NCBI GenBank assembly: GCA_016191235.1
Contig: JACPOZ010000025.1
Location: forward strand, 3,894-67,893
DNA length: 64,000 nucleotides
Reading direction: 5' to 3'
Source: Gammaproteobacteria bacterium
GTDB taxonomy: Bacteria; Pseudomonadota; Gammaproteobacteria; Ga0077554; Ga007554
The translations under genes were made by a program, and so were the position numbers. This document shows, piece by piece, positions 7,358-50,556 of this stretch (positions within the stretch are counted from its first letter, which is position 1; each line of letters starts with the position of its first letter). The notes under the pieces were generated by a model. The model was not told where the DNA came from. It did not search any database and was given only the letters and a program-made list of their open reading frames with translations.

Positions 7358-7522
7358 TAACCCGAATGTTTCATAAATTCGCGTGATGATCGCGCCGGAT
7401 TTTGATTGATAGGGGGATTTTGTGAAGGAGCGCCGTAGTGATTCATACGGCCGACTGAACAAAATTCCCATAGTGATCAAAAGACCAGCGAGGGCGCGCG
7501 AATTTATGAAACATTCGGGTTA
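7358..7522. mobile_element. MITE-like element: 26-bp perfect terminal inverted repeats around a 113-bp core
   Basis: 7358-7383 TAACCCGAATGTTTCATAAATTCGCG is the exact reverse complement of 7497-7522. It lies in the rsgA/UPF0149 intergenic region. TA occurs at both outer ends. Confidence 0.5.
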
Positions 7523-7589
7523 TATCCCGCGCAGGCTATCGGCAGGGCACTGTGTACCGCGGCATCCAACAGGCAAAGAGGACCAAAAC

Positions 7590-8162
7590 ATGAATGTGAA
7601 CGCACCGCTTACGGACGAGGATCTCACGCGCCTCGACGACTTCCTCTCTTCGGACGCCAGCGGCGAGGAAAGCCTCTATCCGGACGAAATCCACGGCCTG
7701 ATGACTGCCATGATCTGTGGGCCGGAGGCGATCGTACCCAGCGAATGGATGCCACTAGTTTTCGCGGGTGATCCTGATTTCGCCGATGCGCGGCAGGCAG
7801 AAGAAATCATGGGCTTGTTGTTGCGCATGCACAACAACATCGCCTCCACCCTCCAGGCCGGGAAAGAATATCAACCGCTGCTGCCGCAGAGCGAGGACAT
7901 TGAAGACGCAGACTTCGTCGCCGAGGGCTGGTGCCGTGGCTTCATGATGGGCATGAGCCTGCGCGGAGAGCAATGGATGGAACACCTTGAGGGCGACCTC
8001 GGCAATATGCTGTTTCCCATCATCGCACTGGCGGGCGAGCCACCCGACTTTTCCAGTGAGGAAGATCCTATCGAACCCATCAGCCCCGAGGAGATGACGG
8101 ACCTTTGCGATATGTTGCCGGACAGCGTAGCGGCGGTTTATGCCTTCTGGCGCACACACTAA
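7590..8162 (+). CDS. UPF0149 (YgfB/YecA N-terminal-like) family protein
   Basis: Sequence ..[24 protein letters not shown].. is typical of UPF0149. ATG at 7590 follows AAGAGGA. The longer ORF-track start (7422) runs through the MITE-like element. Confidence 0.7.
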
Positions 8163-8188
8163 AACCTGATTCAACCCGGACCTTAACC

Positions 8189-9430
8189 ATGACCCAAGAC
8201 ATCAGACAAGCTGCCCTCGACTATCACGAGCACCCCACGCCGGGAAAGCTCGGTATCGCCATTACCAAACCCTGCGACACCCAGCGCGAGCTGGCTCTGG
8301 CCTATACGCCCGGCGTGGCCGAGCCGGTACGCGAGATCGCCAAAGACCCCGAGGCCGCCTACCGCTATACGGCGAAAGGCAACCTGGTGGCGGTGATTAC
8401 CGACGGCACGGCGGTGCTGGGTCTGGGCGATGTCGGGGCGCTGGCGGGCAAACCCGTGATGGAAGGCAAGGCGGTGCTGTTCAAGAAATTCGCCAATATC
8501 GACGTGTTTGATATTGAAGTCACCGCCGGCTCTACACAGGCCTTCATCGACACCGTGGCGCACATCTCGCCAACCTTCGGCGGCATCAATCTGGAAGACA
8601 TCGCCGCACCGCACTGCTTCGAAGTGGAAGAGGCACTCATCGAGCGCCTCGATATTCCGGTATTTCACGACGACCAGCATGGCACCGCCATCATCGTCGC
8701 CGCAGGTCTGCTCAACGCCCTGGAACTGCAAGGCAAGTCCATCGGCGAGGCACGCATCGTATGTCTGGGCGCGGGCGCCGCAGGTATCGCCTCGATGCGC
8801 CTGCTGGTGGCGCTGGGCGCGAAAAAGCACAATATCTTCCTCACTGACCGCCAGGGTGTGATACACAGCGGCCGCACCGACCTCAACACCTACAAGCGCG
8901 AGTTCGCCATCGACACCGGCAGGCGCACCCTGGCCGACGCCATGCAGGATGCGGATGTGCTGATCGGCGTATCCGGCCCCGATCTGGTGACGCCCGAGAT
9001 GCTGGAAGTCATGGCGCCTCGCCCCATCGTTTTCGCCCTCTCCAATCCCGACCCCGAAATCCGCCCCGCCGTGGCCCACGCAGTGCGCAGCGACCTGATC
9101 ATGGCCACCGGGCGCAGCGACTATCCCAATCAGGTCAACAACGTGCTGGGCTTCCCCTTCATCTTCCGCGGCGCTCTGGACGTGCGCGCCACACGCATCA
9201 ACCAGGCCATGCAGATCGCCGCCGTGCATGCCTTGCAGGCGCTGGCCCACGAACCGGTACCCCGCGATGTGCTGGAGGCCTACAAGCTGGACCACCTGGA
9301 ATTCGGCCCCGATTACATCATCCCAAAACCCTTCGACCTGCGGTTGATCGACCGCGTACCTGCGGCCGTGGCGCGGGCGGCGGTGGAGTCGGGGGTGGCG
9401 CGGCAGGACTATCCTGAATACTATCGGTAG
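8189..9430 (+). CDS. maeB: NAD(P)-dependent malic enzyme, short form without PTA domain
   Basis: 413 aa from [21 protein letters not shown]. Contains ..[10 protein letters not shown].., [35 protein letters not shown]. Confidence 0.9.
9407..9416 (+). repeat. Boundary core GACTATCCTG, copy 1 (inside the last codons of maeB)
   Basis: Homology between maeB copy 1 and the downstream maeB fragment ends exactly after this 10-mer. Confidence 0.7.
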
Positions 9431-9465
9431 CGGTCACGTTAGGGGACTATTCGGGGGCGCGCGCG

Positions 9466-9990
9466 ATGGAATGTTTGCGCCGGCTTGAAGATGACGAGAG
9501 TGGACCAATGAGTGCCGAGAGTTTAACTGACGAAAAAATCGGGGAGCTGCTATCCACGCCGAAACGGGTTACTAACCCTAATAGCAAGTGGCGCGAAAAG
9601 CCGGGGCATAACGAACGAAACTACACCGTTGAAAGCATGGATAGCACCCATCATTTTGTTCTATATGTACGACAAAACCGCAATCTGGATGATGATTTCT
9701 CTTGTGGATTGCGTTGGCTTGCACCGAGCGGCGAAACCATAACGCTGGCACGATATAACGGCAGCAGCCATTCTCATCCCAACCATGTTGAGAAACAAAG
9801 GCTTGGATTTGTATGCCACATCCATAAAGCTACAGAGCGCTACATCCGCGCCGGAAAAAAGATCGAAGGATATGCGGAGGATGCATCACTACGTTATAAC
9901 AGCGTTAAAGGCGCACTGGCTTGTCTTGTTGGCGATTGCGCAATCAAAGGGATTGTGACAGAACCTGACCACCCGGACCTATTCAAATGA
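9466..9990 (+). CDS. Hypothetical protein (accessory module 1, gene A)
   Basis: 174-aa ORF. Its stop overlaps the next start (ATGA at 9987-9990). His-rich patch SHSHPNHVEKQ..CHIHKATE. No family recognised. An alternative start is the Met at 9508. Confidence 0.55.
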   Translation: MECLRRLEDDESGPMSAESLTDEKIGELLSTPKRVTNPNSKWREKPGHNERNYTVESMDSTHHFVLYVRQNRNLDDDFSCGLRWLAPSGETITLARYNGSSHSHPNHVEKQRLGFVCHIHKATERYIRAGKKIEGYAEDASLRYNSVKGALACLVGDCAIKGIVTEPDHPDLFK

Positions 9991-10766
9991 CCATTCCCAC
10001 CGAAGAGCTTAAACAGTTACTTTGTAATGCACTCTGTGCCGAGGTACGTCTTTACGAGAAGGGGGAGAATCTGATTTTTGTTGAAACCCCCTTCTCGTTC
10101 AGTGATGGCGATACCTATTCGATTTACCTCAGACAATTGCCGAGCGGTGGTTTTCGTATTAGCGATTATGGTCATACCATGATGCACCTTAGCTATGAGA
10201 ACGATATAGACAAGTTCCGTGAGGGCACGCGAGGCAAGATTTTTGAACAAATTCTCAACGAAATGGATTTAAGAGAGGAAAATGGCGCCTTTTACACGGA
10301 TACGCCAATGGAAAACATCGGGGCTGCTCTTTTCAGATTCGGTCAGGCGGTAACTAAAATTCATGATCTCACCTTCCTGAACCGATTAAGAACAGAATCT
10401 ACATTTTATGATGATCTCCGGGAATCCCTCCAGCATATCGTGCCGACCGAAAAAGTCACGGAAAATTACGTGTACGAGGCAATGCCCAATGCGCGAGATT
10501 ATCCCATCGATTTCCGTATTGACGGAAAGTATGCCCCGCTGTTTGTTTTCGGTATTCCCGGCAGGGATAAGGCGCGCTTGGCTACGATCATTCTGGAGCA
10601 TCTGTTGCGAGAAAAAGCCGAGTTTGATTGCCTGCTGATCTTCGCTGACCAGAGCGTGATTCCTCGGGGAGATTTGGCCCGATTATCTAATGTTGGCGGG
10701 GAAATGGTGGCATCTCTTGACGCGCAAGATGATTTTCAGCGCAAGGTTCTGAAGCGCGTCGCCTAA
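9987..10766 (+). CDS. Hypothetical protein, resembles DUF1828/DUF1829-type proteins (from memory only)
   Basis: 259-aa ORF translationally coupled to gene A. N-terminal ..LIFVETPFSFSDGDTYSIYL.. resembles DUF1828. This assignment is unverified. Confidence 0.55.
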   Translation: MTIPTEELKQLLCNALCAEVRLYEKGENLIFVETPFSFSDGDTYSIYLRQLPSGGFRISDYGHTMMHLSYENDIDKFREGTRGKIFEQILNEMDLREENGAFYTDTPMENIGAALFRFGQAVTKIHDLTFLNRLRTESTFYDDLRESLQHIVPTEKVTENYVYEAMPNARDYPIDFRIDGKYAPLFVFGIPGRDKARLATIILEHLLREKAEFDCLLIFADQSVIPRGDLARLSNVGGEMVASLDAQDDFQRKVLKRVA

Positions 10767-10830
10767 TCCTGCTATGTCGTGCGCCGCAGTGGAATCGCGG
10801 GGTGGCTCGACGGGATTACCCTGGTTTCTA
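10764..10830 (+). repeat. Degenerate remnant of the maeB 3' end (internal att-like scar)
   Basis: GCAGTGGAATCGCGGGGTGGCTCGACGGGATTACCCTGGTTTCTA aligns to 19262-19306 GCGGTGGAATCGGGGGTGGCGCGGCAGGACTATCCTGGTTTTTA. I estimate about 80-85% identity by eye. Core equivalent is GATTACCCTG at 10814-10823. Confidence 0.65.
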
Positions 10831-10882
10831 TCCGACACGCAGGCTGCCAAAAAACAGCCAGTACATGATTGACAGGACCTCC

Positions 10883-13165
10883 ATGGCAAAACTGACCGAA
10901 CAAGAACAACAGGAGATCATCCGCCATCTGGAAGCGGGTAAACCGCTGCCGGACAAATACCGCTTTCTGCTGTTTGACGACAAGCGCGAAGTCGAGCTGG
11001 TGTGGAACGGCAAAACCGGCGAGGTATGCAATGTGGTGCTGCCGTTTCAGGTGATCGAGCAGGTAGACGAGCCGCGCGCAGAGAAGAATACCTCGTTACA
11101 GTTCGGGCTGTTTGACATGGATGCCCGTGGCCGCCAGCTCAAGGGCTGGACCAATAAACTCATCTGGGGCGACAACAAGCTGATTCTCTCGTCCCTCAAA
11201 AACGGCCCGCTGCGCGAAGAGATCGAAAAACAGGGCGGCATCAAGCTGATCTACATCGACCCGCCCTTTGACGTGGGTGCGGATTTTTCGATGGACATCG
11301 AGATCGGCGGCGACACCTTCACCAAAAGACCCAACGTGCTGGAAGAACTCGCCTACCGCGACACCTGGGGCAAGGGCGCGGATTCCTTCATCGCTATGAT
11401 CTACGAGCGGCTGGTGCTGATGCGGGACTTGCTGGCGGAGGATGGGAGTATTTATGTGCATTGCGATTGGCGGGTGAATAGTCATATTAGACTCGTTGCC
11501 GACGAAGTTTTTGGCTCTTCTTATTTTCGCGGCCATATTGCATGGAAAAGAACGTCGGCACATAGCGACTCTAAATTCTTTCCATATATCCACGATTCAA
11601 TTTTGTTTTATGCGAAATCGGAGCGAACCAGGTTTTCTCGCCAGTACGAACCACTTGATGACAAATATGTGGACTCTAAATATCGGCATAAAAACACGGA
11701 TGGAAGGCTATACAGAAAAGATAACTTGACTGCTACAGGGCTTAGTGGGGGTGGCTATGATTATGAATGGAATGGAGTAAAAAGAACGTGGAGATGTCCA
11801 CCTGAAACAATGGGCAGGCACGAAAAAGAAGGCCGATTGAGTTACACGAAAAATGGTGTCGCAGAATATATAAGATACCTTGATGAGAGTGATGGAAGGA
11901 TTGTTGGTGACTTGTGGACTGATATATCTCCAGTCAATAGCCAAGCATCGGATAGACTAAACTACCCCACCCAAAAACCCGAAGCCCTCATTGAACGCAT
12001 CATCAAAGCATCCAGCAACGAAGGCGACCTGATCGCCGATTTCTTTTGCGGCTCCGGCACCACCGCCGCCGTGGCGGAAAAGCTGGGGCGCAAGTGGATC
12101 ACCAGCGACTTGGGCAAATTCGCCATCCACACCACGCGCAAGCGCCTGATCGGGGTGCAGCGGCACCTGAAGGCCGAAGACAAGCCCTACCGCGCCTTTG
12201 AAATTCTCAACCTGGGCAGGTACGAGCGCCAACATTACATCGGCGTAAACCCCAACCTGCGCGAAGTGGAAAAACAGCAGCAACTGGAGGAGAAGGAAGC
12301 CGCCTTTCTCGACCTCATCCTGCGCGCCTACCGCGCCGAACGGACGACGGGCTTTGCCACTTTCCACGGCAAGAAGGCCGGGCGGCTGGTAACGGTGGGG
12401 CCGGTGAATATGCCCATCACGCGGCTGTTCGTGGAGGAGGTGATTCTGGAGTGCCGCAAAAAGCATATCACCAAGGTGGACATGCTCGGCTTCGAGTTCG
12501 AGATGGGCCTGTTCCCCAATGTGTTGGACGAGGCGAAATCCAAAGGCATCGACATCGCGCCCAAATCCATCCCCGCCGACGTGTTCGACAAACGCGCGGT
12601 GGAAAAGAATCAGGTGGTATTCCATGATGTTTCGTTCATCGAGGTGAAGCCGATTATCAAGAAAAACAGCGTAGCGGTGGAGTTGACGGATTTTTCGGTG
12701 TTCTATTCGCAGGATTCAATTTCCGCAGCCGAAGCGTCGCTCAAGGACAAGGCCAGCAAGATCGTGGTAGACAAAGGCCAGATCGTGAAGGTAAGCAAGG
12801 ACAAGGACGGCATCGTCACCCGCGAGCAACTCACCAAACACTGGACGGACTGGATCGACTACTGGTCGGTGGATTTCGACTTCGAAAACAAACGCGAGAT
12901 AATCCGCGTCAAGAAAATCCCCTCTGGGCAAGGCGTGCTGGAAGGACTTGAGCCGCCACAAATTCAATTCGATGAGTACGAGGAAGTCTGGAGCGGGGAT
13001 TACGTTTTCGAAAATGAATGGCAATCCTTCCGCACCAAAAAAGACCGCTCGCTGGAGCTGATAAGCGTGGCGCAGGAAGTGATGCCGGGGCGGCGCAAGA
13101 TCGCGGTGAAGGTGGTGGATATTTTCGGCAACGACACGATGACGATTGTGGAGGTGCGGGTGTGA
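10883..13165 (+). CDS. mod: Type III-like DNA methyltransferase (Mod), beta-class amino-MTase with long C-terminal extension
   Basis: NKLIWGDNKLILSSL. Motif IV IYIDPPFDV precedes NYPTQKPEALIERII and motif I DFFCGSGTTAAVA. Start is uncertain (10802 GTG, 10865 or 10883 ATG). Confidence 0.85.
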   Translation: MAKLTEQEQQEIIRHLEAGKPLPDKYRFLLFDDKREVELVWNGKTGEVCNVVLPFQVIEQVDEPRAEKNTSLQFGLFDMDARGRQLKGWTNKLIWGDNKLILSSLKNGPLREEIEKQGGIKLIYIDPPFDVGADFSMDIEIGGDTFTKRPNVLEELAYRDTWGKGADSFIAMIYERLVLMRDLLAEDGSIYVHCDWRVNSHIRLVADEVFGSSYFRGHIAWKRTSAHSDSKFFPYIHDSILFYAKSERTRFSRQYEPLDDKYVDSKYRHKNTDGRLYRKDNLTATGLSGGGYDYEWNGVKRTWRCPPETMGRHEKEGRLSYTKNGVAEYIRYLDESDGRIVGDLWTDISPVNSQASDRLNYPTQKPEALIERIIKASSNEGDLIADFFCGSGTTAAVAEKLGRKWITSDLGKFAIHTTRKRLIGVQRHLKAEDKPYRAFEILNLGRYERQHYIGVNPNLREVEKQQQLEEKEAAFLDLILRAYRAERTTGFATFHGKKAGRLVTVGPVNMPITRLFVEEVILECRKKHITKVDMLGFEFEMGLFPNVLDEAKSKGIDIAPKSIPADVFDKRAVEKNQVVFHDVSFIEVKPIIKKNSVAVELTDFSVFYSQDSISAAEASLKDKASKIVVDKGQIVKVSKDKDGIVTREQLTKHWTDWIDYWSVDFDFENKREIIRVKKIPSGQGVLEGLEPPQIQFDEYEEVWSGDYVFENEWQSFRTKKDRSLELISVAQEVMPGRRKIAVKVVDIFGNDTMTIVEVRV

Positions 13166-13518
13166 GAAAGGATTTGGCGATTTCCGTGTTTGAAGTCACC
13201 AGTAATCCGCTGTGCGTCGCTTCTTTCGATGGCCAGAGAATCTATGATCGTTTGGTCGTGGCCTTGCAAGCAGGTCGAAGCGTTACGCTGTCCTTCCGCA
13301 ATGTCACCACCTTAACCACGACATTTTTGGATACGGCAATTGGTCAGTTGTACAGCGTGTTCAGTGAAGAAAAAATACGCTCATCGCTCAAAGTACAAGA
13401 TATGCTGGCCGATGATTTGACTTTATTAAAACGAGTGATAGAAACCGCTAAGCAATACTTTAAGATAATGCGCAGAGACAATTCTGCGGCTTGGGAAAAA
13501 GAGGGGACGGAGGAATGA
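13162..13518 (+). CDS. STAS-like (DUF4325-like) small protein
   Basis: GTG 13162 overlaps the mod stop (GTGA), with GAGGTG 5-11 nt upstream. Sequence ..FDGQRIYDRLVVALQAGRSVTLSFRNVTTLTTTFLDTAIGQLY.. resembles DUF4325 (from memory, unverified). Confidence 0.6.
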   Translation: MRKDLAISVFEVTSNPLCVASFDGQRIYDRLVVALQAGRSVTLSFRNVTTLTTTFLDTAIGQLYSVFSEEKIRSSLKVQDMLADDLTLLKRVIETAKQYFKIMRRDNSAAWEKEGTEE

Positions 13519-14900
13519 AAATACAAATTAAAAATCTTGGTGCATTGCAACAAGCCGAGTTCTCTCTTGGTGATATGACCATTTTATGTGGCGGCAATAA
13601 TACAGGTAAGACCTATGCCACTTATGCGCTGTTTGGTTTTTTGTCTGTCTGGCGTGAGAACTTCTCCATTCAGATACCGGAGCAAAAGATTAATCAGCTT
13701 CTTGCAGAAGGTGTTGTTCATATGGATGTGGCTGAATACAGCGATAAGGCTTCGGATATTCTCGCCTCTGGATGTGCTGCGTACACGAAGCAGTTGCCAG
13801 TAATTTTTGCTGCGCCTGCGGATCGGTTTAAGGAGAGCCAGTTTGTCGTGACTGTTGATGCCCAGGACATTCCCTCTTCTGGGGGATATGGGCGTCGCAT
13901 GGGGGCGGCTAATACCGAGCTGTTCTCCATCACCAAAGCGGAGGCCAGCAGTGATCTGGTGATCACTTTGCTGGTTGATAGAGAGCAGGTCAGAATACCA
14001 CTGGATGTCATTACAAGAGTTATTAGTGATTCGCTGAAGGACATTCTTTTCGGCCACCTCTTTCCCAATCCTTTCATCGCCAGCGCAGAAAGAACCGGTG
14101 CGGCTATTTTTCGCAAAGATTTGAATTTCGCTCGCAATCGTTTGCTAGAGGAAATGACTAAAACGGACAAGAATGTCGACCCCATGGACTTGCTATTTAA
14201 GGTCTATCAAGACTATGCCCTACCCGTAAAAGCTAATGTAGATTTTACTCGGCAGCTTGAAACTCTAGCTAAGAAGAGCAGCTTTATTGCCCAGCAACAT
14301 CCAGAGGTATTAGCTGATTTTGCTGACATCATCGGCGGTGAGTACAAAGTGACAACAAATGATGAGCTTTATTACATTCCGAAAGGTAAAAGCGTCAAAC
14401 TGACCATGGACGAAAGCTCTAGCGCGGTGCGTTCACTGTTGGATATTGGCTTCTACCTGAAGCACATGGCCAAGCCGGGTGACTTGCTTATGGTGGACGA
14501 ACCGGAGTTGAACCTTCACCCTGAAAACCAGCGGCGGGTCGCCCGGCTGTTAGCCCGCCTGGTTAATCTCGGCATTAAGGTTTTTATCACGACTCATAGT
14601 GATTACATCGTCAAAGAGTTAAATACGCTCATTATGCTCAGTCACGACAAGCCGCCGTTGAGAAGGCTTGCCGAGAGAGAGGGGTATAAACCTGAAGAGC
14701 TTATAACTTCTGAACGAGTGAGGGTTTACATTGCCGAAAAAGCATCTATCAAAGTGGATGGCGGAAGAAATAAAGTCAATCGACACACGCTGACACCCGC
14801 CGACATAGACCCTGAACTGGGCATTGAGGCTCGCAGTTTCGATACGACAATTGAAACAATGAACCGGATTCAGGAAGAAATTGTCTGGGGCGGGGAATGA
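13515..14900 (+). CDS. ABC/SMC-type ATPase (AAA_15/AAA_21-like)
   Basis: ATG overlaps the upstream stop (ATGA) and GGAGGA lies immediately upstream. Walker A GGNNTGKT, signature-like SSSAVRSLL, Walker B LLMVDEPELNLHP, H-loop ITTHSD. Confidence 0.85.
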   Translation: MKIQIKNLGALQQAEFSLGDMTILCGGNNTGKTYATYALFGFLSVWRENFSIQIPEQKINQLLAEGVVHMDVAEYSDKASDILASGCAAYTKQLPVIFAAPADRFKESQFVVTVDAQDIPSSGGYGRRMGAANTELFSITKAEASSDLVITLLVDREQVRIPLDVITRVISDSLKDILFGHLFPNPFIASAERTGAAIFRKDLNFARNRLLEEMTKTDKNVDPMDLLFKVYQDYALPVKANVDFTRQLETLAKKSSFIAQQHPEVLADFADIIGGEYKVTTNDELYYIPKGKSVKLTMDESSSAVRSLLDIGFYLKHMAKPGDLLMVDEPELNLHPENQRRVARLLARLVNLGIKVFITTHSDYIVKELNTLIMLSHDKPPLRRLAEREGYKPEELITSERVRVYIAEKASIKVDGGRNKVNRHTLTPADIDPELGIEARSFDTTIETMNRIQEEIVWGGE

Positions 14901-15457
14901 CCATGCCTGATCTCGCCATTCTTCACCAGATGATTAAAGATGGAGCCAAGGTGCCATTGCTCGAAAAACACGGCAAAAAATCAGTCGTGCTCTCTGAACC
15001 CCAGCATCCTGACTCCTCGGTAACGATTGCGGGCATGCCGGATAACACTATCGTTATCAAGGCGGATGCTTTCAAGTCTCCCGACACGGTGTTTGCTGGC
15101 TTGCAGGGTGAATGCAAGCGCGCTGATTTTGTCATTGTGGCTGACACTGGCAAAAAGAAAAGCATCGTCTGCATCGAGATGAAGGCAAAAAAAGCTTCTG
15201 AGAAGGAAATCATTCAGCAACTCTCTGGAGCGGAATGTTTTATCGTTTATTGCCGAGAGATTGGTAAGTCCTTTTGGAAGCAGCAGGATTTTCTCGCTGA
15301 TTACTCGTTTCGTTTCATCAGTATTGGTCATACCAGCATTCCCAAGCGCCGGACGCGCATTGATCGGTCTGCAGACGTTCATGATCGTCCTGATCGGATG
15401 TTGAAGATTTCCTCTCCACATCGTTTGCAATTCAATCAGCTGGCCGGAGCAAGCTGA
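14897..15457 (+). CDS. Small hypothetical protein with candidate PD-(D/E)xK nuclease motif
   Basis: 186 aa, with both ends overlapping its neighbours (ATGA at the start, TGATG at the end). Motif ..RADFVIVADTGKKKSIVCIEMKAKK.. fits D..(D)..ExK spacing. Confidence 0.5.
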   Translation: MTMPDLAILHQMIKDGAKVPLLEKHGKKSVVLSEPQHPDSSVTIAGMPDNTIVIKADAFKSPDTVFAGLQGECKRADFVIVADTGKKKSIVCIEMKAKKASEKEIIQQLSGAECFIVYCREIGKSFWKQQDFLADYSFRFISIGHTSIPKRRTRIDRSADVHDRPDRMLKISSPHRLQFNQLAGAS

Positions 15458-18144
15458 TGGCTCTGCACAAGGATTTTCCCTCATCCCCCCATGCCATCCT
15501 CGATCCCTCCATCCGCTGGTTTCCGGCGGATGAGGCCTTGCGCACATCGAGCTTTGAGAAGCTACTGCCGCCGCTGGTGCCGGAACTGCGCAAACAGGTG
15601 AAGACGTGGCGCGATAGCGGCTACGCCAAGGCGACGGAGACTAGCCGCAGCCTGCTCAACTGGTGGTTTAATACGCCACACCTGCTGCCCAAGCTTAATG
15701 GCGGAATGGTTGAGTTTCAGTATTACTTCGCCCAGCGCGAGGCGCTGGAGACCATCATCTACCTGTATGACGTGGTCGGGGTAAAAGATAAATATGACCT
15801 GATGCGCTTCGACCATTCCGGTGCGGTATCCACCGGCATGTTCGACGAAAGCTGGCGGCGCTTTGTGGTAAAGATGGCCACCGGCGCGGGCAAGACCAAG
15901 GTGATGAGTCTGGCGCTGGCGTGGAGCTACTTTCACAAGCTCTATGAGCCGGAGTCGGAGCTGGCGCGCAACTTTCTGGTGATTACGCCCAACATCATCG
16001 TGCTGGATCGTATTTACAAGGATTTTCAGGGGTTGCGTATCTTTTTTGATGACCCGGTGCTGCCGGATAATGGCGTGGATGGGCGCAACTGGCGGGATGA
16101 TTTCCAGCTGGCGTTGCATGTACAGGATGAGGTGAGAATTACTCATCCTGTCGGCAACATCTTTCTGACCAACATCCATCGGGTCTATTCAGGCGAAGAC
16201 ATTCCGCCTTCGCCCGATGATGACAACACTATGGATTATTTTCTCGGAAAACGGCCCACCGGTGCGACGACCGATTCCAAGGTGGATCTGGGCATGATCG
16301 TACGTGACATCGACGAGCTGATGGTGTTGAACGACGAGGCTCACCATATTCACGATAGTAAGCTGGCGTGGTTTAAGTCTATAGAAGATATTCACAACCG
16401 CCTCAAGCAGAAAGGCGATGCTTTGAGTTTACAGCTGGATGTAACAGCGACCCCCAAGCACAACAACGGCGCAATTTTTGTTCAGACCATTGCCGACTAC
16501 CCGTTGGTGGAAGCGATTTCGCAGAACGTGGTGAAGCACCCAGTGTTGCCCGATGCCGCCAGCCGCGCCAAGCTGGCGGAACGGCAAAGCGCCAAATACA
16601 CCGAGAAATACGCCGATTACATCAACCTCGGCGTGGTGGAGTGGCGCAAGGCGTATGCCGAACATGAGAGGCTGGGCAAGAAGGGCATCCTGTTTGTGAT
16701 GACCGACGACACCCGAAATTGTGATGATGTGGTGGATTATCTCGAAGGTAACTATCCCGATCTGAAAGGCGCCGTGCTGGTGATTCATACCAAGAATAAC
16801 GGTGAGATTTCCGAGGCATCCTCAGGCAAGAATAAAGAAGAGCTGGAGCGGCTGCGCAAACAGGCCAATGAGATCGACAGCATGGAGAGCCCCTATAAGG
16901 CCATCGTTTCCGTGTTGATGTTGAAAGAGGGCTGGGATGTGCGCAATGTCACCACCATCGTCGGGCTGCGTGCCTATTCGGCAAAGAGCAATATCCTGCC
17001 CGAGCAGACACTGGGGCGCGGCTTGCGCAAGATGTACCCCGGCGATGTGGAGGAGTATGTCAGCGTGGTGGGTACCGACGCCTTCATGGAGTTTGTCGAG
17101 TCCATTCAAGCTGAAGGTGTGGTGCTGGAACGCAAACCGATGGGTGAGGGAACCGGGCCAAAAACACCACTGATCGTTGAGATCGACAGGGACAACGAGA
17201 AGAAAGATCTTGATGCGCTGGACATAGAAATTCCGGTGATGACACCGCGCGTCTACCGGGAATACAGGAATCTGTCCGATCTTGAGGTGCGCACTCTGGA
17301 TGGTTCCAGGGTGACTTATCAGCAGTTCAGCGAAGAGCAGCAGCGGGAGATTGTCTTTAAGGACATTACCACCGGCGAGGTCACGCATAGCACTTTTCTG
17401 GATACGGCGGGCATTGCCGATTATCGCAGTGTGATCGGTTATTTTACACAGGCCATCATGAAAGATCTGCGTCTGATCAGTGGTTACGATGTGCTTTACG
17501 GCAAGGTCAAGGCATTTGTGCAGGAGCAGTTGTTCGACCAGCAGGTGGTGCTGGATGATCCCAACACCTTGCGGAATCTTTCAGAGCTGGCTGCCACCAA
17601 GACGCTGATCGAAGCATTCAAGAAAGGCATCAACGCACTTACCGTGCGGGATAAGGGCGATGCCGAGATTCGGGACTACATCAAACTGCGGCAAACCAGA
17701 CCATTTGTGGCGAAGGATCAGGGCTACCTGATCCCGAAGAAAAGCATCTTCAACAAGATCATTGGTGATAGCCATTTTGAGTTGCGATTTGCCCGCTTTC
17801 TGGATGATTGCGACGATGTTGTCTCCTACGCCAAAAACTATCTGGCGGTGCATTTCAAGCTCGATTATGTGAACGCCGATGGTAATATTTCAAATTACTA
17901 CCCAGACTTTCTGGTGAAACTGTCGAACAAGGAAATCGTTGTTGTTGAGACCAAAGGCCAGGAGGATCTAGATGTGCCGCTGAAAATGGCGCGGTTGCGA
18001 CAGTGGTGTGAGGACATCAGCCGGATTCAGTTGGAAGTAAAGTACGATTTTGTGTATGTGGATGAAGAGAGTTTTGAGCAATACAGGCCCACGTTATTCA
18101 GGCAGTTGATTGGCAGCTTCCAGGAGTACCAACAGAAAACGTGA
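15457..18144 (+). CDS. res: Type III restriction enzyme Res subunit (SF2 helicase plus C-terminal endonuclease)
   Basis: Walker A MATGAGKTKV, motif II LNDEAHH, later helicase motifs (MLKEGWDV, QTLGRGLR). C-terminal PD..ExK YYPDFLV..VVVETKG. Confidence 0.9.
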   Translation: MALHKDFPSSPHAILDPSIRWFPADEALRTSSFEKLLPPLVPELRKQVKTWRDSGYAKATETSRSLLNWWFNTPHLLPKLNGGMVEFQYYFAQREALETIIYLYDVVGVKDKYDLMRFDHSGAVSTGMFDESWRRFVVKMATGAGKTKVMSLALAWSYFHKLYEPESELARNFLVITPNIIVLDRIYKDFQGLRIFFDDPVLPDNGVDGRNWRDDFQLALHVQDEVRITHPVGNIFLTNIHRVYSGEDIPPSPDDDNTMDYFLGKRPTGATTDSKVDLGMIVRDIDELMVLNDEAHHIHDSKLAWFKSIEDIHNRLKQKGDALSLQLDVTATPKHNNGAIFVQTIADYPLVEAISQNVVKHPVLPDAASRAKLAERQSAKYTEKYADYINLGVVEWRKAYAEHERLGKKGILFVMTDDTRNCDDVVDYLEGNYPDLKGAVLVIHTKNNGEISEASSGKNKEELERLRKQANEIDSMESPYKAIVSVLMLKEGWDVRNVTTIVGLRAYSAKSNILPEQTLGRGLRKMYPGDVEEYVSVVGTDAFMEFVESIQAEGVVLERKPMGEGTGPKTPLIVEIDRDNEKKDLDALDIEIPVMTPRVYREYRNLSDLEVRTLDGSRVTYQQFSEEQQREIVFKDITTGEVTHSTFLDTAGIADYRSVIGYFTQAIMKDLRLISGYDVLYGKVKAFVQEQLFDQQVVLDDPNTLRNLSELAATKTLIEAFKKGINALTVRDKGDAEIRDYIKLRQTRPFVAKDQGYLIPKKSIFNKIIGDSHFELRFARFLDDCDDVVSYAKNYLAVHFKLDYVNADGNISNYYPDFLVKLSNKEIVVVETKGQEDLDVPLKMARLRQWCEDISRIQLEVKYDFVYVDEESFEQYRPTLFRQLIGSFQEYQQKT

Positions 18145-18172
18145 CACGGCACAAATCACCGTTTTGCGAGAA

Positions 18173-18182
18173 GACTATCCTG
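18173..18182 (+). repeat. Boundary core GACTATCCTG, copy at the right end of the mod-res module
   Basis: Exact 10-mer 29 nt after the res stop. The following ..CGCTTAT.. matches the sequence after the 20923 core. Confidence 0.6.
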
Positions 18183-18212
18183 TCAATTGCCTCGCTTATG
18201 AGGCCCCGATAG

Positions 18213-18536
18213 TTACTTCGGCAAACCACCACCCTCTCCGCCAATAGCAATCATCCCGGACAACTCCGATGTTTGCGCCTTCAGAAACGCTAACAATCGA
18301 GCCGGGTAGCCAGGGAAAGCCGCGTCTTTAACAGACGGCCGGGCAGCAAGCGCGGAACGCCATGCCCGCACTTTTGGGGTGCAATCATATACGCCGAAGT
18401 AGCGGAAAATCGGGCCGAATACCGCGTCGACCATCGAGAAGCGCTCACCGGCAAAGTAAGGCCCCACCTTGAGTTGCTGCTCGATAGTTTCGAACTTCGC
18501 CTGGAGGTCAGCGTGTTTGATCTCGTGCGCCTTGGC
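18213..18536 (-). pseudogene. 3' fragment of a glutathione S-transferase gene (divergent second allele)
   Basis: Translates to ..[73 protein letters not shown].., matching the C-terminal third of the GST at 20942-21637. It has an in-frame roughly 9-aa gap. It has no 5' part and abuts the maeB fragment. Confidence 0.8.
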
Positions 18537-19307
18537 ATACCGGTGTTCCACGACGACCAGCATGGCACCGCCATCATCGTCGCCGCAGGTCTGCTCAACG
18601 CCCTGGAACTGCAAGGCAAGTCCATCGGCGAGGCGCGCATCGTATGCCTGGGCGCGGGCGCTGCGGGTATCGCCTCGATGCGCCTGCTGGTGGCGCTGGG
18701 CGCGAAAAAGCACAATATCTTCCTCACTGACCGCCAGGATGTGATACACAGCGGCCGCACCGACCTCAACACCTACAAGCGCGAGTTCGCCATCGACACC
18801 GGCAGGCGCACCCTGGCCGACGCCATGCAGGATGCGGATGTGCTGATCGGCGTATCCGGCCCCGATCTGGTAACGCCCGAGATGCTGGAAGTCATGGCGC
18901 CCCGCCCCATCGTTTTCGCCCTGTCCAATCCCGACCCCGAAATCCGCCCCGCCGTGGCTCACGCGGTGCGTAGCGACCTGATCATGGCCACCGGGCGGAG
19001 CGATTACCCTAACCAGGTCAACAACGTGCTGGGTTTCCCGTTCATCTTCCGCGGCGCCCTGGACGTGCGCGCCACACGCATCAACCAGGCCATGCAGATC
19101 GCCGCCGTGCATGCCTTGCAGGCGCTGGCCCACGAACCGGTGCCCCGCGATGTGCTGGAGGCCTACAAGCTAGACCACCTGGAATTCGGCCCCGATTACA
19201 TCATCCCAAAACCCTTCGACCTGCGTCTGATCGACCGCGTACCAGCCGCTGTGGCGCGGGCTGCGGTGGAATCGGGGGTGGCGCGGCAGGACTATCCTGG
19301 TTTTTAG
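18537..19307 (+). pseudogene. 3' fragment of the malic-enzyme gene (second allele, promoterless and 5'-truncated)
   Basis: Collinear with 8655-9416. By eye I count about 30 substitutions over about 760 bp, and all but one (G to D) are synonymous. It ends ..QDYPGF* where copy 1 ends ..QDYPEYYR*. Confidence 0.85.
19290..19299 (+). repeat. Boundary core GACTATCCTG, copy at the left end of the Fic module
   Basis: Exact 10-mer at the end of the maeB fragment. Confidence 0.6.
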
Positions 19308-19326
19308 TTGAATGGCGGAAATCAAG

Positions 19327-19366
19327 CTCGTAGGACGCAAAGCCTGCAGGCATTGTGCCCTACGAG
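19327..19366. repeat. REP-like imperfect hairpin (GTAGGAC...GCCCTAC type) with central GCCTGCAGGC palindrome
   Basis: CTCGTAGG/CCTACGAG outer stem plus CGCAA/TTGTG inner stem. It lies directly after the maeB-fragment stop. Confidence 0.5.
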
Positions 19367-19448
19367 TTCTGTATAGGGGCAGCTTGGTACATGGGTGGCA
19401 TCGCCACATGACGCTTAGGTCAGGTCTTCGTAGAAGAAATGGGGATTG

Positions 19449-20798
19449 TTAGAGCTTATTTTCTATTAGCCTAGCCTTTAGATCTGGTGGGGAGACAAAT
19501 ACGAAGGAAGCTCCATATTTCCTCCTCCTCAACAAATTTAATTGATCAGACATTTTCAACAAATCTGTTCTAGCGGTTTGATAACTAACTGCATGCGAAG
19601 CCTGATGCTCTTGTATGCGATAAATAGCATTTGGATGCTCCAGGGCATGCTTCAATAATGACAATTGCCTATGATTCAACTGGCCCTTGGCCTTCGAGTT
19701 ATCAAGCAACTTCTCAGCTTCTTCAATTTCTTGTGATTTTATTTCTAGATATTCATGTAATGCTTTAACCCCCTTCTTAATTATGTCCATTTGATGAATA
19801 AGAAAATAGGTTAAGTCATTACCATCAGTTTCAGTATGTAAATAGGCTTTGCCATATTGGACAGGGTTCTGTTTAATGATTCTGGAGATAGAAATAAATT
19901 CCATCAGCCAGTAGCCTTGCTTTGCCATTGCCCAGTAAAACAATGCCCTGGCCGTTCTCCCATTGCCGTCAACAAAAGGGTGATCGTAGCCGATCATAAA
20001 ATGCAAGGTTATTGCCTTTATAACTGGATGAATAAACTCTTTTTCTTCCAAGTCGTTAGCAAATCTGCATATTTTTTCAATACGCCCAGGAAGAGTATCC
20101 GCATCTGGTGGTGCATGAAGAACAACTGATTCACTACTGTCCACGACCTGGATATCATCCGTATTTTCTCTAAAATGTCCGGCCTTGGAAGGATCATCAA
20201 GAGTATTTTTGGTGAGAATTTCATGGAGGTGCTTAATTAGGGATGGCGTTAGTTCGTCGTCCTTATAATCTCTTATAGCCCTCATAGCCTTATAATTGTT
20301 AAAAATCATCTGCTCACTATGATCTTTAGGCTGCCGCCCTTGCCTTAGCATCTCCTTGGCAACATTTCTTGTCGTTGACGCCCCCTCAAGCTGGCTAGAG
20401 CTTATAGATTCCTCAATAAGGGAGCTGACGAGGTAAGTGTCTCTAGTATGAGGATTCGTGATAGGCCGATCCATCGTAATACTTCCAGCTGCATTCTGAT
20501 CCAGCCAATGCAACTCTCTTTGCAAAGGGTCTGGGACACAAAAATTAAAGGGACTCCCATTTTTATCTGTGAGGGATAATTTTTTAAATGCCTTTTGCCG
20601 TGCCAGCTTGGTAGCAAACCAGTATTCTTCGCTGGACAATCCTTCAGGAGGCGAAAGATGTTTTAGTTTTTCCCAATGAAGATATCTGCCTTTGCCGTCT
20701 GTAAGTCCAATATTAGAAGTCAGAATTTGCGCCAGCTTTTTCTGATCAAGCTTCACGAGCATTTCAGAAATAGATGGTGGTGATTCAGGTATTTTCAC
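19449..20798 (-). CDS. Fic family protein (class II, with N-terminal inhibitory motif and C-terminal wHTH-like tail)
   Basis: Canonical Fic motif HPFVDGNGRTARAL. SxxxEG inhibitory-helix motif (SSSQLEGAST) upstream. Very AT-rich compared with the flanks. The ORF-track start is a GTG. Confidence 0.9.
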   Translation of the reverse strand: MKIPESPPSISEMLVKLDQKKLAQILTSNIGLTDGKGRYLHWEKLKHLSPPEGLSSEEYWFATKLARQKAFKKLSLTDKNGSPFNFCVPDPLQRELHWLDQNAAGSITMDRPITNPHTRDTYLVSSLIEESISSSQLEGASTTRNVAKEMLRQGRQPKDHSEQMIFNNYKAMRAIRDYKDDELTPSLIKHLHEILTKNTLDDPSKAGHFRENTDDIQVVDSSESVVLHAPPDADTLPGRIEKICRFANDLEEKEFIHPVIKAITLHFMIGYDHPFVDGNGRTARALFYWAMAKQGYWLMEFISISRIIKQNPVQYGKAYLHTETDGNDLTYFLIHQMDIIKKGVKALHEYLEIKSQEIEEAEKLLDNSKAKGQLNHRQLSLLKHALEHPNAIYRIQEHQASHAVSYQTARTDLLKMSDQLNLLRRRKYGASFVFVSPPDLKARLIENKL

Positions 20799-20844
20799 AG
20801 CGATTGCCCTAGATGCTAATCTTTCTGAGATTAGTATATGGCAT

Positions 20845-20897
20845 AAGAGAAAGTGGGGCTACTAATTATCCATAAATTAGTAGCCCCACTTTCTCTT
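20845..20897. repeat. 23-bp perfect inverted repeat with 7-nt spacer
   Basis: 20845-20867 AAGAGAAAGTGGGGCTACTAATT pairs base-for-base with 20875-20897. It lies between the Fic start and the GST stop. Confidence 0.9.
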
Positions 20898-20910
20898 GCT
20901 AATTATCAGT

Positions 20911-20943
20911 AGAGAGCAATATGACTATCGCTTATTGCTCTCT
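20911..20943 (-). terminator. Hairpin overlapping the GST stop codon (11-bp stem, 11-nt loop containing GACTATC)
   Basis: AGAGAGCAATA / TATTGCTCTCT. Loop is TGACTATCGCT (core copy at 20923-20929). There is no clear U-tract, so terminator function is uncertain. Confidence 0.4.
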
Positions 20944-21637
20944 ACGTGCGCTTAGGCAGTAGACCATCACTCATAGCAATCATCCTGGACAACCCCGATG
21001 TTTGCACCTTCAGAAACGCTAACAATCGAGCCGGGTAGCCAGGGAAAACCGCGTCTTTAACAGATGGCCGGGCGGCAAGCGCGGAACGCCATGCCCGCAC
21101 TTTGGGGGTGTTATCAAATATGCCGAAATCAGCAATGGCATCGAACACGTCGAAGTAGCGGAAAATCGGGCCGAATACTGCGTCGACCATCGAGAAGCGA
21201 TCACCGGCAAAATAAGGCCCCTCCTTGAGTTGCTGCTCGATGGTTTCAAACTTCGCCTGGAGGTCAGCGCGTTTGATCTGGAGCGCCTTGGCGTCTGGGG
21301 CGGTGTAAAAGCCCCAAATGTTATCGAGAATCGCGGAGCCGAATTCCATCCATGCGCGATGCTTGGCTCGCTGCAACGGGTCGCCGGGATGCAGCGGTTC
21401 GCCCATCGTCTCGTCGAGATACTCGCAGATGACGGCGGACTCGAAGAGCACCTCCGCGCCAATCTGCAATAGCGGCACCTTCCCCAAGGGCGAAATCTTG
21501 TTGAACCACTCAGGCCTGTTTGCGAGGTCGATGTAGGTTCGCTCAAAGGGCGCACCCTTTTCGTTGAGCACGATGACGGCGCGCTGCACATAGGGGCACA
21601 GATGATGACTTACCAAATGCAGTTTTTCATTATTCAT
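20942..21637 (-). CDS. Glutathione S-transferase family protein
   Basis: Start at MNNEKLHLVSHHLCPYVQR.. preceded by AAGGAGG. Thioredoxin-like N-terminus and GST C-terminal domain. The ORF-track 5' extension to 21721 crosses the operator region. Confidence 0.85.
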   Translation of the reverse strand: MNNEKLHLVSHHLCPYVQRAVIVLNEKGAPFERTYIDLANRPEWFNKISPLGKVPLLQIGAEVLFESAVICEYLDETMGEPLHPGDPLQRAKHRAWMEFGSAILDNIWGFYTAPDAKALQIKRADLQAKFETIEQQLKEGPYFAGDRFSMVDAVFGPIFRYFDVFDAIADFGIFDNTPKVRAWRSALAARPSVKDAVFPGYPARLLAFLKVQTSGLSRMIAMSDGLLPKRT

Positions 21638-21681
21638 GATGCCTCCTTTTGAGCCAACAGGTATTCTTGAATCAGATGTAA

Positions 21682-21721
21682 TTGCAAATGCAACCATAAT
21701 GGAAATTAGTTGCGTTTGCAA
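21682..21721. promoter_or_regulatory. Candidate MarR operator in the divergent GST/marR intergenic region
   Basis: TTGCAAATGCAAC (21682-21694) versus GTTGCGTTTGCAA (21709-21721) is a 12/13 inverted repeat. It is flanked by the 11-bp direct repeat TATTCTTGAAT (21662-21672 and 21723-21733). Confidence 0.45.
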
Positions 21722-21747
21722 CTATTCTTGAATTACCATAATTAAAA

Positions 21748-22221
21748 ATGCGAAATCCCAAATCAAAATCAACGGTCTCAACCACTACGTGGGCACTGTT
21801 TTTAACAACCCATGCCGTGCTGCTTGAGAAAATCGAGGCCACGCTCAAGGTGGCGGAGCTACCGCCCCTCGAATGGTATGACGTGCTTTGGGCGCTTGAG
21901 CGCGCCCCTCAGCACCGTTTGCGAATGCACGAGCTCGCCCATTCGGTCGTCCTCTCCAGGAGCAACCTGACGCGATTAGTTGACCGTCTTGAGGCTGCGG
22001 GACTTGTGGAACGGCAGTCCGCAGCGGATGACAAGCGGGGTGCTTACGGCGTGCTCACGTCGGCAGGGTTGGCGATGAGAGAAAAGATGTGGCCGGCCTA
22101 TCGGGATTGCATCGTGGATCTCTTCAACCAGCACCTCTCCAAGGACGAGCAGGGCATAATGAATGGGGCGTTGCGCCGGATATTGGATGCGGCAAGAGAT
22201 AGTGCTGACGAAGGGATCTAA
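21748..22221 (+). CDS. MarR family transcriptional regulator
   Basis: 157 aa. wHTH region ..LRMHELAHSVVLSRSNLTRLVDRLEAAGLVERQ..DDKRG... Confidence 0.85.
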   Translation: MRNPKSKSTVSTTTWALFLTTHAVLLEKIEATLKVAELPPLEWYDVLWALERAPQHRLRMHELAHSVVLSRSNLTRLVDRLEAAGLVERQSAADDKRGAYGVLTSAGLAMREKMWPAYRDCIVDLFNQHLSKDEQGIMNGALRRILDAARDSADEGI

Positions 22222-22290
22222 GCCTCCGAAGCCACATCTTTACAATCCCACGTTCCCGCCTCATGATTAAGGTCACGCAGGTCCATCTTC

Positions 22291-23220
22291 ATGGGAAAAA
22301 AGGATATGGAGAAGATCACTATCGTCGGCCCCGGCCGGGTGGGCGAATCAGCCGCGCAGATCCTCGCCAAGGAGGAGCTGTGCCGGGAACTGGTGTTGCT
22401 GGGCCGTCAGGAAGGCGTGGCGCGGGGCATCGCTCTGGACATCCAGGAATCCGCGCCGCTGTTTGGTTTCGATACGCGAGTGACGGGCGGGGCAGACCCG
22501 GCCCTGATGGCAGATTCCGATCTGGTGATCATCGCCGCCGGTGCTCCCCGCAAGCCGGGCATGTCGCGCGCCGATCTGCGCGATGCCAACCTGCCCGTCA
22601 TCACCATGATAGTCGATCAAGTTATGCGCTACGCTCCCCAAGCCATGGTGCTGATTGTAAGCAATCCGGTGGATGTGCTCACTTATCACGCCTGGCGCCA
22701 TACCGGCTGGGCGCGGCAGCGGGTATTCGGCCTGTCGGGCGTGCTCGACAGCGCGCGCATGGCGAGCTTCATCGCTTTGGAAACCGGGTTCTCGGTTAGG
22801 GACATCACGGCGATGGTGATCGGCGGGCATGGCGACACGATGGTGCCGCTGCCGCGCTACACCTGCATTAATGGCATTCCCATCACCCACTTCCTCTCTC
22901 CTGAAGCCATCGCGCGTCTTGGTGAGCACACCCGCCAGGGCGGCGCCGAGATCCTGGCGCTTAAAGAGAACAGCAGCGCCTACGACTCCCCGGCGGCAGC
23001 CATCGCCACTATGGTAGATGCGTTGGTTCACAGGCGACGGCGCGTGCTGCCGTGCGTTGCCATATTGGATGGCGAGTATAGCCAGCACGACATCGCCTTC
23101 GGCGTGCCCGCTATCCTTGGCGGAACGGGTCTGGAAAAGGTGGTGGAACTGCCGCTGACCGAGGAAGAACAAGAGGCGGTGCGGCGTTCGGCTGAGCAGG
23201 TGCGGGCGAGTCTGGGGTGA
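22291..23220 (+). CDS. mdh: Malate dehydrogenase (LDH-like MDH family)
   Basis: ITIVGPGRVG Rossmann motif, AGAPRKPGMSRADL, SNPVD, IGGHGDTMVP. Start may be 22291 or 22306. Confidence 0.9.
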   Translation: MGKKDMEKITIVGPGRVGESAAQILAKEELCRELVLLGRQEGVARGIALDIQESAPLFGFDTRVTGGADPALMADSDLVIIAAGAPRKPGMSRADLRDANLPVITMIVDQVMRYAPQAMVLIVSNPVDVLTYHAWRHTGWARQRVFGLSGVLDSARMASFIALETGFSVRDITAMVIGGHGDTMVPLPRYTCINGIPITHFLSPEAIARLGEHTRQGGAEILALKENSSAYDSPAAAIATMVDALVHRRRRVLPCVAILDGEYSQHDIAFGVPAILGGTGLEKVVELPLTEEEQEAVRRSAEQVRASLG

Positions 23221-38565: not shown

Positions 38566-38588
38566 TTCTGTTACTCCCTGTAAAGGAG

Positions 38589-39732: not shown

Positions 39733-39736
<4 letters not shown>
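39119..39736 (-). CDS. pilO: Type IV pilus assembly protein PilO
   Basis: Single TM segment, coiled coil, and operon position. Confidence 0.85.
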
Positions 39737-41444
<1,708 letters not shown>

Positions 41445-49008: not shown

Positions 49009-49126
49009 GTTTTAAGGGTCCAGAGGTCAGGGATCAGTGTGCAGGTCGAATCAAGTTGGCGGAGCCAACCTGCGTATCTCCAGCGGTCAGGAGCCAGGGG
49101 CATGGCTTTCACCGGCCCCCCGATCC

Positions 49127-49930: not shown

Positions 49931-49949
49931 GGTCCACTTACTCCAGTAT

Positions 49950-50023: not shown

Positions 50024-50104
50024 TCATTTCCAAAAAAAACCCCCGCCACCTTGCGGCAACGAGGGCTTTTTACATGCAGGGGCGGGTTCACCGCCCTTAC
50101 AGAT

Positions 50105-50461: not shown

Positions 50462-50556
50462 TTTCTAAAACTCCTCAATTCTGTGTGCTATGGAATTGCA
50501 GGAGCGGCCTTGGCCGCGATCAATCGCGAGCAAGTTCCGCCCCCGCATGTGCGCGC

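Follow-up and report, generated by a model that had tools for sequence, protein, structure and literature searches.

A recombinase-free defense hotspot downstream of maeB and the truncated gene copies that may record its assembly

What do short repeated words at the borders of a defense island mean when no recombinase lies among its genes? The question is raised by a 64,000-nucleotide (nt) stretch of DNA from a Gammaproteobacteria bacterium (assembly GCA_016191235.1, contig JACPOZ010000025.1, positions 3,894 to 67,893 of the forward strand), hereafter the window. The intact malic-enzyme gene maeB (8186-9430, plus strand; 414 codons including the stop; Pfam malic and Malic_M) and mdh, a malate/lactate dehydrogenase-family gene (22306-23220, plus strand), are separated here by 12.9 kb. 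This interval is a variable cargo slot, with maeB as its left border and mdh as its right, and its content in the window is a composite anti-phage island. A preliminary description had noticed that the word GACTATCCTG, found at the 3' end of maeB, recurs between the blocks of the island. It proposed that GACTATC(CTG) is an att-like core, that a recombinase acted in trans or was since lost, and that each block is an element flanked by duplicated cores. We find a hotspot of another making. The blocks were probably stacked by one homologous exchange in maeB combined with one illegitimate joint, at least twice, with each event leaving a maeB 3' scar. The locus is not a new kind of integration site; it is an ordinary recombinase-free defense hotspot, of a known kind, whose history is unusually readable.

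The positions reported earlier for the word were correct. GACTATCCTG occurs exactly three times in the window, at 9407, 18173 and 19290, against an expectation of 0.07 (0 of 100 shuffles reached three). The shorter GACTATC occurs 12 times where 3.6 are expected, and its copy at 20923 does sit in the loop of a stable hairpin (20910-20944; z -5.0). The diverged maeB terminus described between the first two blocks is also real. Self-BLAST aligned 10771-10830 with 19248-19306 (78% identity over 60 nt), nhmmer recovered the same sequence (E 2e-4), and the similarity reaches ~10867 against L167, one of the relatives designated here by L numbers. As judged by these alignments, three of the five “cores” (9407, ~10813 and 19290) each correspond to the terminal Asp-Tyr-Pro codons of a different maeB 3' copy. 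The first (9407-9416, plus strand) belongs to the intact gene, that at 19290-19299 is the end of a maeB fragment, and the stub, which encodes ..GVARRDYPGFYP.., carries its core as GATTACCCTG at 10814-10823. Further, the 9407 and 19290 copies are not independent marks of insertion, for both end one 777-bp duplication (8640-9416 and 18523-19299; 95.5% identity).

The C-terminus of the malic enzyme had been thought to be rewritten by insertion, from ..DYPGF* to ..DYPEYYR*. A tail of the same form, DYPEHYR*, is however found in L165 with an ABC-transporter cargo. The window's tail was not created by this insertion but is an allelic variant shared with that genome. The natural C-terminus of the family follows the pattern YP-x-[FHY]-YP-x-stop, and the maeB genes of close relatives are cut at differing codons (DYSKEST*, DYPDFS*, KYPNF*, DYPGF*). 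We infer that the core marks the last part of maeB under constraint, still common to all these maeB copies. Tails and flanks differ downstream of the Asp-Tyr-Pro codons, and pairwise comparisons therefore break near the core. The match of CGCTTAT after the 18173 and 20923 cores, once read as a common flank, is a mere 7-mer at different offsets, and at 20923 it forms part of a REP-like palindrome. Homologous sequence flanking a glutathione S-transferase (GST) gene was considered as an explanation for these two sites and dropped, only a 7-mer and a 6-mer at different spacing being found and no significant alignment. The hairpin at 20910-20944 is itself a truncated copy of a REP-like element that also follows GST in L171, L172 and L173 and maeB in L164. 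Its loop reads GACTATC in the window (20923-20929) and GGCTATC in L171, L172 and L173.

The evidence for how the blocks came together lies in the truncated gene copies. By self-BLAST, the segment 18523-19299 duplicates the maeB 3' end and belongs to a 5'-truncated copy of the gene (18537-19307, plus strand) that ends in ..DYPGF*. Against it lies GST_X (18213-18536, minus strand), a 3' fragment of a second, foreign GST allele. Self-BLAST matched its positions 18244-18536 to the 3' end of the resident GST gene (20973-21292) at 86% identity, with an in-frame 27-nt deletion in GST_X. In a three-way alignment of the joint (18523-18540), GST sequence runs up to GGCAT, CCGG is common to both parents, and maeB follows. 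The microhomology (ATnCCGG) lies within a patch of partial similarity, with ~4-8 nt common to GST and maeB, and the joint places the interior of the GST gene against maeB 777 nt before the core end. The fusion is a microhomology joint between unrelated genes and as such illegitimate. The older stub, with its native downstream flank (10771-10867, plus strand), reaches back 45-65 nt from the core and either overlaps or immediately follows the stop codon of the DUF1828 gene of the first block; by eye its start may be as early as ~10750. It matches the maeB end and flank of L167 over 94 nt (E 2e-9).

The two long maeB copies also carry a record of where they came from. Of the 760 sites beyond the joint zone, 30 differ between them; 28 of these are third codon positions, and there is a single amino-acid change in 253 codons. 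This third-codon bias departs from random codon positions (P 9e-12) and from a model in which half of the changes arose in a pseudogene (P 1e-4). The differing sites are distributed evenly, without any long stretch of identity, and the copies are mutually nearest (96.1% identity, versus at most 93.7% to any sampled genome). The two are alleles from different lineages. Because their divergence is almost purely synonymous, it arose while both were working genes in separate genomes; because one copy is now truncated, it must predate the joint; and because the copies are mutually nearest, the donor was a close relative. The fragment ending in ..DYPGF* is the backbone allele, continuous with Fic, GST, MarR and mdh as in L171.

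Comparison with relatives was informative for six genomes and supports the earlier view that the site downstream of maeB is a repeatedly used hotspot, with five different contents in relatives and a stack of at least three blocks in the window itself. A protein search found five maeB homologues at 95-97% identity, and among genomes with maeB this similar at the protein level we counted five slot states. In L001 and L003, mdh directly follows maeB and the slot is empty. L171, reached by the GST search, reads maeB-Fic-GST-MarR-mdh and is collinear with window segments 7520-9417, 18523-20911 and 20916-23208; thus, L171 equals the window without 9418-18522. The slot of L163 contains a 6-kb set of genes (histidine kinase, response regulator, DUF420 protein, hydrolase and alcohol dehydrogenase) and that of L165 a 5-kb HlyD/ABC-transporter operon. 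The contigs of L164 and L167 stop shortly after maeB. L167 nevertheless has a full-length maeB (..KYPDFYPK*) followed by a stub-like flank that matches the window to ~10867 and by a remnant of the mod 3' end (window 12996-13065); the RM (restriction-modification) block therefore once stood directly after maeB in a near relative. The same genes border the slot throughout, with maeB and mdh on either side in L161, L163, L165 and L171 and adjoining in L001 and L003. In terms of occupancy among the six genomes, the window has four defense or candidate systems, L171 has Fic, and L163 and L165 have signaling and transport genes. Since relatives carry non-defense cargo, the slot does not appear to be dedicated to defense. 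Scans of larger collections (maeB against genome contigs, GST against metagenome contigs) listed no relative above 77% (maeB) or 71% (GST) protein identity and, among the matches listed, no convergent maeB and GST; they did yield L001 and L003, with mdh directly after maeB.

L161 illustrates movement in the opposite direction. Only ~460 nt lie between its maeB and mdh, and they hold a Fic 3' stub and a MarR 3' stub. Relative to the window, its positions 11340-11440 reveal a clean 2.6-kb deletion of 19500-22125, by which Fic, GST and most of MarR are gone (stubs of ~50 nt of Fic and ~96 nt of MarR). This shows loss of cargo by illegitimate deletion at the same slot. Transposases occur near the locus in other relatives. 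An IS66-family transposase gene (1044-1952) lies at the GST 3' end in L174 (GST 353-1111), overlapping the extended GST reading frame, and IS66, IS110 and IS4 transposases are found within 10 kb of the locus in L171. The neighborhood therefore attracts rearrangements in several lineages.

The points at which relatives part from the window do not coincide with the core. Measured from the core end (9416 or 19299), homology breaks 4 nt before it in L163, 13 nt after it (19312) when L164 is aligned with the maeB fragment, 20 nt after it (9436) when L165 is aligned with intact maeB, and ~45-50 nt after it (~10867) when L167 is aligned with the stub. Cargo blocks had been said to begin at the core, but homology to relatives with other cargo runs past it (9436, ~10867, 19312). 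The breakpoints are thus scattered from 4 nt before to ~50 nt after the core end, and the novel joints lie 45-65 and 777 nt inside maeB. Simple or near-empty sites read AAATATCCTG or AAATATCCTA in L171, L161 and L167, GATTATTCGA in L163 and CCGTATCCGG in L001, not GACTATC, and only TATCC (Tyr-Pro) is common to the core region of unoccupied sites. Boundaries at unrelated positions and empty sites without GACTATC are two findings that run counter to the preliminary description on its own terms. The right edge of the slot is ragged as well (22126, 22238 and 22306) and in L165 falls exactly at the mdh start codon. Both edges appear to sit where selection on maeB and mdh stops tolerating damage.

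We propose the following course of events. The backbone is maeB-Fic-GST-MarR-mdh, as in L171, and a 9.1-kb piece would have arrived from a closely related lineage. This piece would have consisted of a maeB 3' end, the PDC-M24-like pair, the older maeB stub, the type III RM genes with a nested PD-T4-4/PDC-M47-like module, and the GST 3' end of that lineage. Entry through homologous exchange in maeB, together with a microhomology joint of the foreign GST fragment to the resident maeB, would have created the 777-bp direct repeat of maeB 3' sequence. The maeB stub upstream of mod (~100 nt with its native flank) may be the product of an earlier event of this type. The route may have been homology-facilitated illegitimate recombination following DNA uptake, the Campbell-type insertion of a circle, or break repair, and the product would be the same in each case. 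RecA could also loop out the 9.9-kb block between the 777-bp repeats and so restore an L171-like locus. What is observed are the duplications and the stub, the microhomology joint, the synonymous divergence of the alleles, the backbone in L171 and the other cargos of relatives, along with the lack of a recombinase; the order of events and the molecular route are inferred.

Homology-facilitated illegitimate recombination was defined experimentally in Acinetobacter, Streptococcus and Pseudomonas stutzeri, and is reportedly the subject of work by de Vries and Wackernagel in 2002 (listed in PMC8116780). In the window, the 777-bp maeB repeat represents the homologous side of such an event and the ATnCCGG joint of GST_X to maeB the microhomology side. 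As in the experimental cases, one end is anchored in a homologous gene and the other is joined at a microhomology of a few bases near the anchor. Unlike them, the recipient sequence is duplicated rather than deleted, and the event is read here from junction anatomy alone.

Several observations weigh against this account. No donor genome with the 9.1-kb piece in full was found. GST_X differs more from its counterpart (14%) than the maeB copies do from each other (4%), and a single donor for both is therefore not proven. Open reading frames (ORFs) that span the joint are recorded on no contig other than the window's own (81,971 bp), so that the composite rests on one assembly. With regard to DNA uptake, only pilMNOPQ was seen, competence-specific genes not having been sought; the presence of pilMNOPQ in the window makes uptake conceivable. 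The isolated word at 18173 is a further difficulty, for common descent accounts for every core copy but this one. GACTATCCTG stands at 18173-18182 (plus strand; exact word match) in the spacer of 99 nt that separates the stop codons of res and the GST fragment, 29 nt after the res stop as described earlier, and extends to 14 of 17 matches (family D8). Local alignments found the bare 10-mer only, with no maeB homology flanking it, and a chance occurrence in exactly this inter-block spacer is unlikely (~0.004 by our own estimate, with ~20 candidate words).

Other origins for the 18173 word were tried. As a fourth maeB stub it failed, since a profile of eight maeB ends finds 10769-10822 (E 2e-4) and nothing at 18.1 kb even at E 100. 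A MAFFT link of 18124-18171 to a REP-like element was dropped because those bases encode the natural res C-terminus across the family. The spacer (18145-18243) gave no significant match to any of the 176 fetched loci. Two kb-sized partners are expected to have about one 10-nt word in common by chance, and illegitimate joining prefers the longest match. The word at 18173 could be the footprint of another microhomology joint, to the maeB terminus, which fits the rest of the locus.

That same word counts in favor of integration at an att-like core, a reading that we nonetheless consider very improbable. The exact 10-mer returns in an inter-block spacer although 0.07 copies would be expected across the window, and CAGGACTATCCTG forms a small palindrome. 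In another organism (L175), close homologues of the RM pair are carried by an element that also encodes an integrase and a primase. The homology to L175, however, ends at the coding sequences and leaves no flank in common with the window. Four of the five copies are maeB ends or an unconserved hairpin loop, GGCTATC in relatives at 20923, rather than direct repeats bounding each block. The left “repeats” are natural maeB codons followed by native flank, not element sequence. The homology on the inner side of the 19290 copy extends for 777 nt instead of ~10 nt. The simple and empty sites of L171, L161, L167, L163 and L001 lack GACTATC, and the L163 and L165 cargos have no second core copy at their right edge. 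The statement that no recombinase lies in 9.4-20.9 kb was borne out, with no such domain found by Pfam or PADLOC. We scanned all large ORFs of 9.4-21.7 kb with both tools, and ORFs of at least 100 amino acids in 26.5-64 kb and the ORF at 35-745 with Pfam. The regions 1.3-9.4 and 22-26 kb match annotated genes of L161 one for one, none of them a recombinase; the scan leaves out the short ORF at 806-1159. Among the window ORFs of at least 100 amino acids that were scanned with Pfam or matched to the relative's annotation, there was thus no integrase, transposase or relaxase domain. A tRNA or Rfam element was also considered as integration target and rejected, no tRNA being found and no Rfam family in 7-23.5 kb.

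The duplication could instead have arisen in place, by unequal sister-chromatid exchange at the microhomology that duplicated the DNA from maeB -777 to mid-GST in tandem, with later replacement of cargo and flank by foreign alleles. The GST'/maeB joint has the exact topology of a tandem-duplication junction, and the maeB copies are mutually nearest. We regard this origin as unlikely. It needs two steps where one suffices, and the 3.9% near-synonymous divergence cannot postdate the duplication, one copy being a pseudogene, so that at least one copy must still have been imported, which is the event of the preferred account; even spreading of the differences, without a long identical tract, speaks against it too. 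A more trivial cause would be the assembly, if two co-existing strains with different islands had been joined in one metagenomic contig. The close relatives that have a source name are annotated as metagenome-assembled genomes, and the joint-spanning ORFs occur on this one contig only. We attach scarcely any weight to such an artifact, given that the ~4-8 nt common to both sides of the joint do not suffice for an overlap or k-mer assembler to link them, that the stub before mod is independently echoed by L167, and that a 4% difference between copies is enough for them to be resolved.

A bolder extension of the preferred reading, stacking by homologous exchange and an illegitimate joint, would treat the maeB 3' pieces as “homing arms”. 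A block bearing several hundred bases of its conserved neighbor gene would enter any relative's maeB by a single RecA-mediated crossover, loop out as a circle between the 777-bp repeats so formed, and re-insert. We think this a long shot. If true, the block would be a recombinase-free, homology-addressed mobile cassette, and the two events of the same shape (45-65 and 777 nt into maeB), together with the stray 10-mer at 18173, would represent a recurrent route and not accidents.

Hotspots of this kind have precedents. Core defense hotspots without identifiable mobilization genes were reported as cDHS1 and cDHS2 in Pseudomonas aeruginosa (Johnson et al., 2023; PMC10250203), and Escherichia coli has defense hotspots without detectable mobile genetic elements (Hochhauser et al., 2023; PMC10121019). 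The maeB-mdh slot resembles them in its fixed core-gene flanks, varying contents, stacked defense systems and lack of hallmark genes of mobile elements. Recombinase-free hotspots have been called “enigmatic”, with flank-mediated homologous recombination only suggested (Johnson et al., 2023; PMC10250203). The route that the authors of both studies suggested, homologous recombination within the flanks, is a further point of likeness to the locus described here. Unlike the cDHS loci, the slot occurs in an uncultured, carboxysome-bearing gammaproteobacterial clade, and in place of the proposed “scar-free” transfer it keeps truncated copies of flanking genes that record the entry of blocks. With the islands of tyrosine recombinases (attL/attR) the locus has in common its position at the 3' end of a conserved gene, the short identity that recurs between blocks and the tandem stacking. 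It differs from them in having no recombinase, in repeats that lie off the breakpoints and are absent from empty sites, and in that one “repeat” is 777 nt of a diverged gene. The biology itself, a stacked defense island at a variable slot, is ordinary. The locus is of use as a worked example of hotspot assembly whose steps are legible in the sequence: both flanking genes are present as truncated allelic copies, a microhomology joint is preserved, and a relative has the matching simple backbone. A warning comes with it, for where an island borders on a conserved gene, short repeats may be nothing more than the final codons under constraint in duplicated gene ends.

The cargo comprises known and candidate defense genes. 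Block 1 (9466-10766, plus strand; Pfam, PADLOC) is a two-gene PDC-M24-like candidate defense pair, made of a DUF6978 protein (9466-9990, plus strand; weak PADLOC match to PDC-M24A, E 2e-3) and a DUF1828 protein (9987-10766, plus strand; PDC-M24B, E 4e-15). The type III RM methyltransferase gene mod (10883-13165, plus strand; Pfam N6_N4_Mtase; PADLOC MTase_III, 3e-109) and the restriction subunit gene res (15457-18144, plus strand; Pfam ResIII; PADLOC REase_III, 5e-21) form one operon and are homologous to a contiguous mod-res pair in L175. The pair as a whole is 82-88% identical in nucleotide sequence and mod, from the L175 start codon on, 84-88%. L175 carries it on an element with an integrase and a primase, with homology confined to the coding sequences, and in the two other hosts compared (L175 and L176) homology ends at the coding sequences. 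The res C-terminus is the natural one for the family, as judged by the C-termini of homologues. More than 100 res homologues at 83-89% identity (P0242-P0360) come from Sulfuricella, Gallionellales, Methylococcaceae, Thermodesulfovibrionales and a deltaproteobacterium, a distribution that points to wide horizontal spread of the RM family.

Three genes (13162-15457, plus strand; Pfam, PADLOC) of lower GC content are nested between mod and res. They encode a DUF4325/STAS-like protein (13162-13518, plus strand), a PDC-M47A/PD-T4-4_A-like ATPase (13515-14900, plus strand) and PDC-M47B (14897-15457, plus strand). The mod-res gap is a small variable slot in its own right. It holds this trio in the window and is empty in L175 (7809-12679), where the mod stop adjoins the res start; in L176 (172-4562), SLFN/AlbA_2 and HATPase_c_4 genes lie just upstream of res. 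Defense genes nested within other defense operons have been described (Payne et al., 2024, preprint; 10.1101/2024.01.29.577857). The PD-T4-4/PDC-M47-like ABC-ATPase pair and the DUF4325 protein between mod and res are a likewise embedded set, and three states of the gap were seen (window, L175 and L176). This concerns a sub-feature of the island and not the core repeats.

The backbone part of the slot begins after the maeB fragment with a REP-like palindrome (19327-19366; fold z -5.9). It continues with the gene of a SoFic-like Fic-domain protein (19449-20798, minus strand; Pfam Fic; PADLOC SoFic, 7e-40), which has the same place in L171, and with two hairpins between GST and Fic (20845-20944; folding and alignment). 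These are followed by the resident GST gene (20942-21637, minus strand; Pfam; homologues at 83-89%) and a MarR-family regulator gene (21748-22221, plus strand) that is paired with GST in L171, L172 and L173 and of which L161 retains only the 3' end. An exact look-up of the GST protein gave no record. The mdh gene that closes the slot has Ldh domains in L161, L163, L165 and L171.

The first of the two hairpins (20845-20897), in the interval from the GST stop to the Fic start, is a perfect palindrome with 23-nt arms (-40 kcal/mol, z -9.7). Its conservation extends to L171, L172 and L173, where compensating changes are seen, and for Fic it could act as a terminator or an operator. REP-like palindromes (GTAGGGCGCAAT...ATTGCGCCCTAC) and a ~50-nt conserved element (GGAAGTATCAA..TCACA.TCGGC.CAATA.GGCTA.CGC.TATTGCG) occur at maeB or GST 3' ends in several relatives (window 19327-19366 and 20910-20944; L164 11282-11366; L171 ~10660-10760). 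No RAYT-type transposase was seen. The REP family was also examined as a common boundary element and set aside, the palindromes being real but of low copy number in the window. At the maeB ends, CAGGACTATCCTG (window 19287-19309) forms a mini-hairpin with a 5-bp stem, followed in the fragment copy by GTTTTTAGTT, and a scan classes this arrangement as terminator-like. A second role as a weak terminator may be why the truncated ..DYPGF* tail was retained.

Farther along, the window contains the type IV pilus genes pilMNOPQ and alpha-carboxysome genes (BMC shell protein, CsoSCA and CsoS2) at 36373-41423 and 60686-63996. Given the carboxysome genes, the host appears to be a gammaproteobacterium that fixes CO2 and lives as a chemolithoautotroph. 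No Pfam match was found for two large ORFs (49037-50437 and 50374-51987), which lie on the strand opposite to a neighboring gene for a 793-amino-acid protein (46627-49008) with a C-terminal VWA domain.

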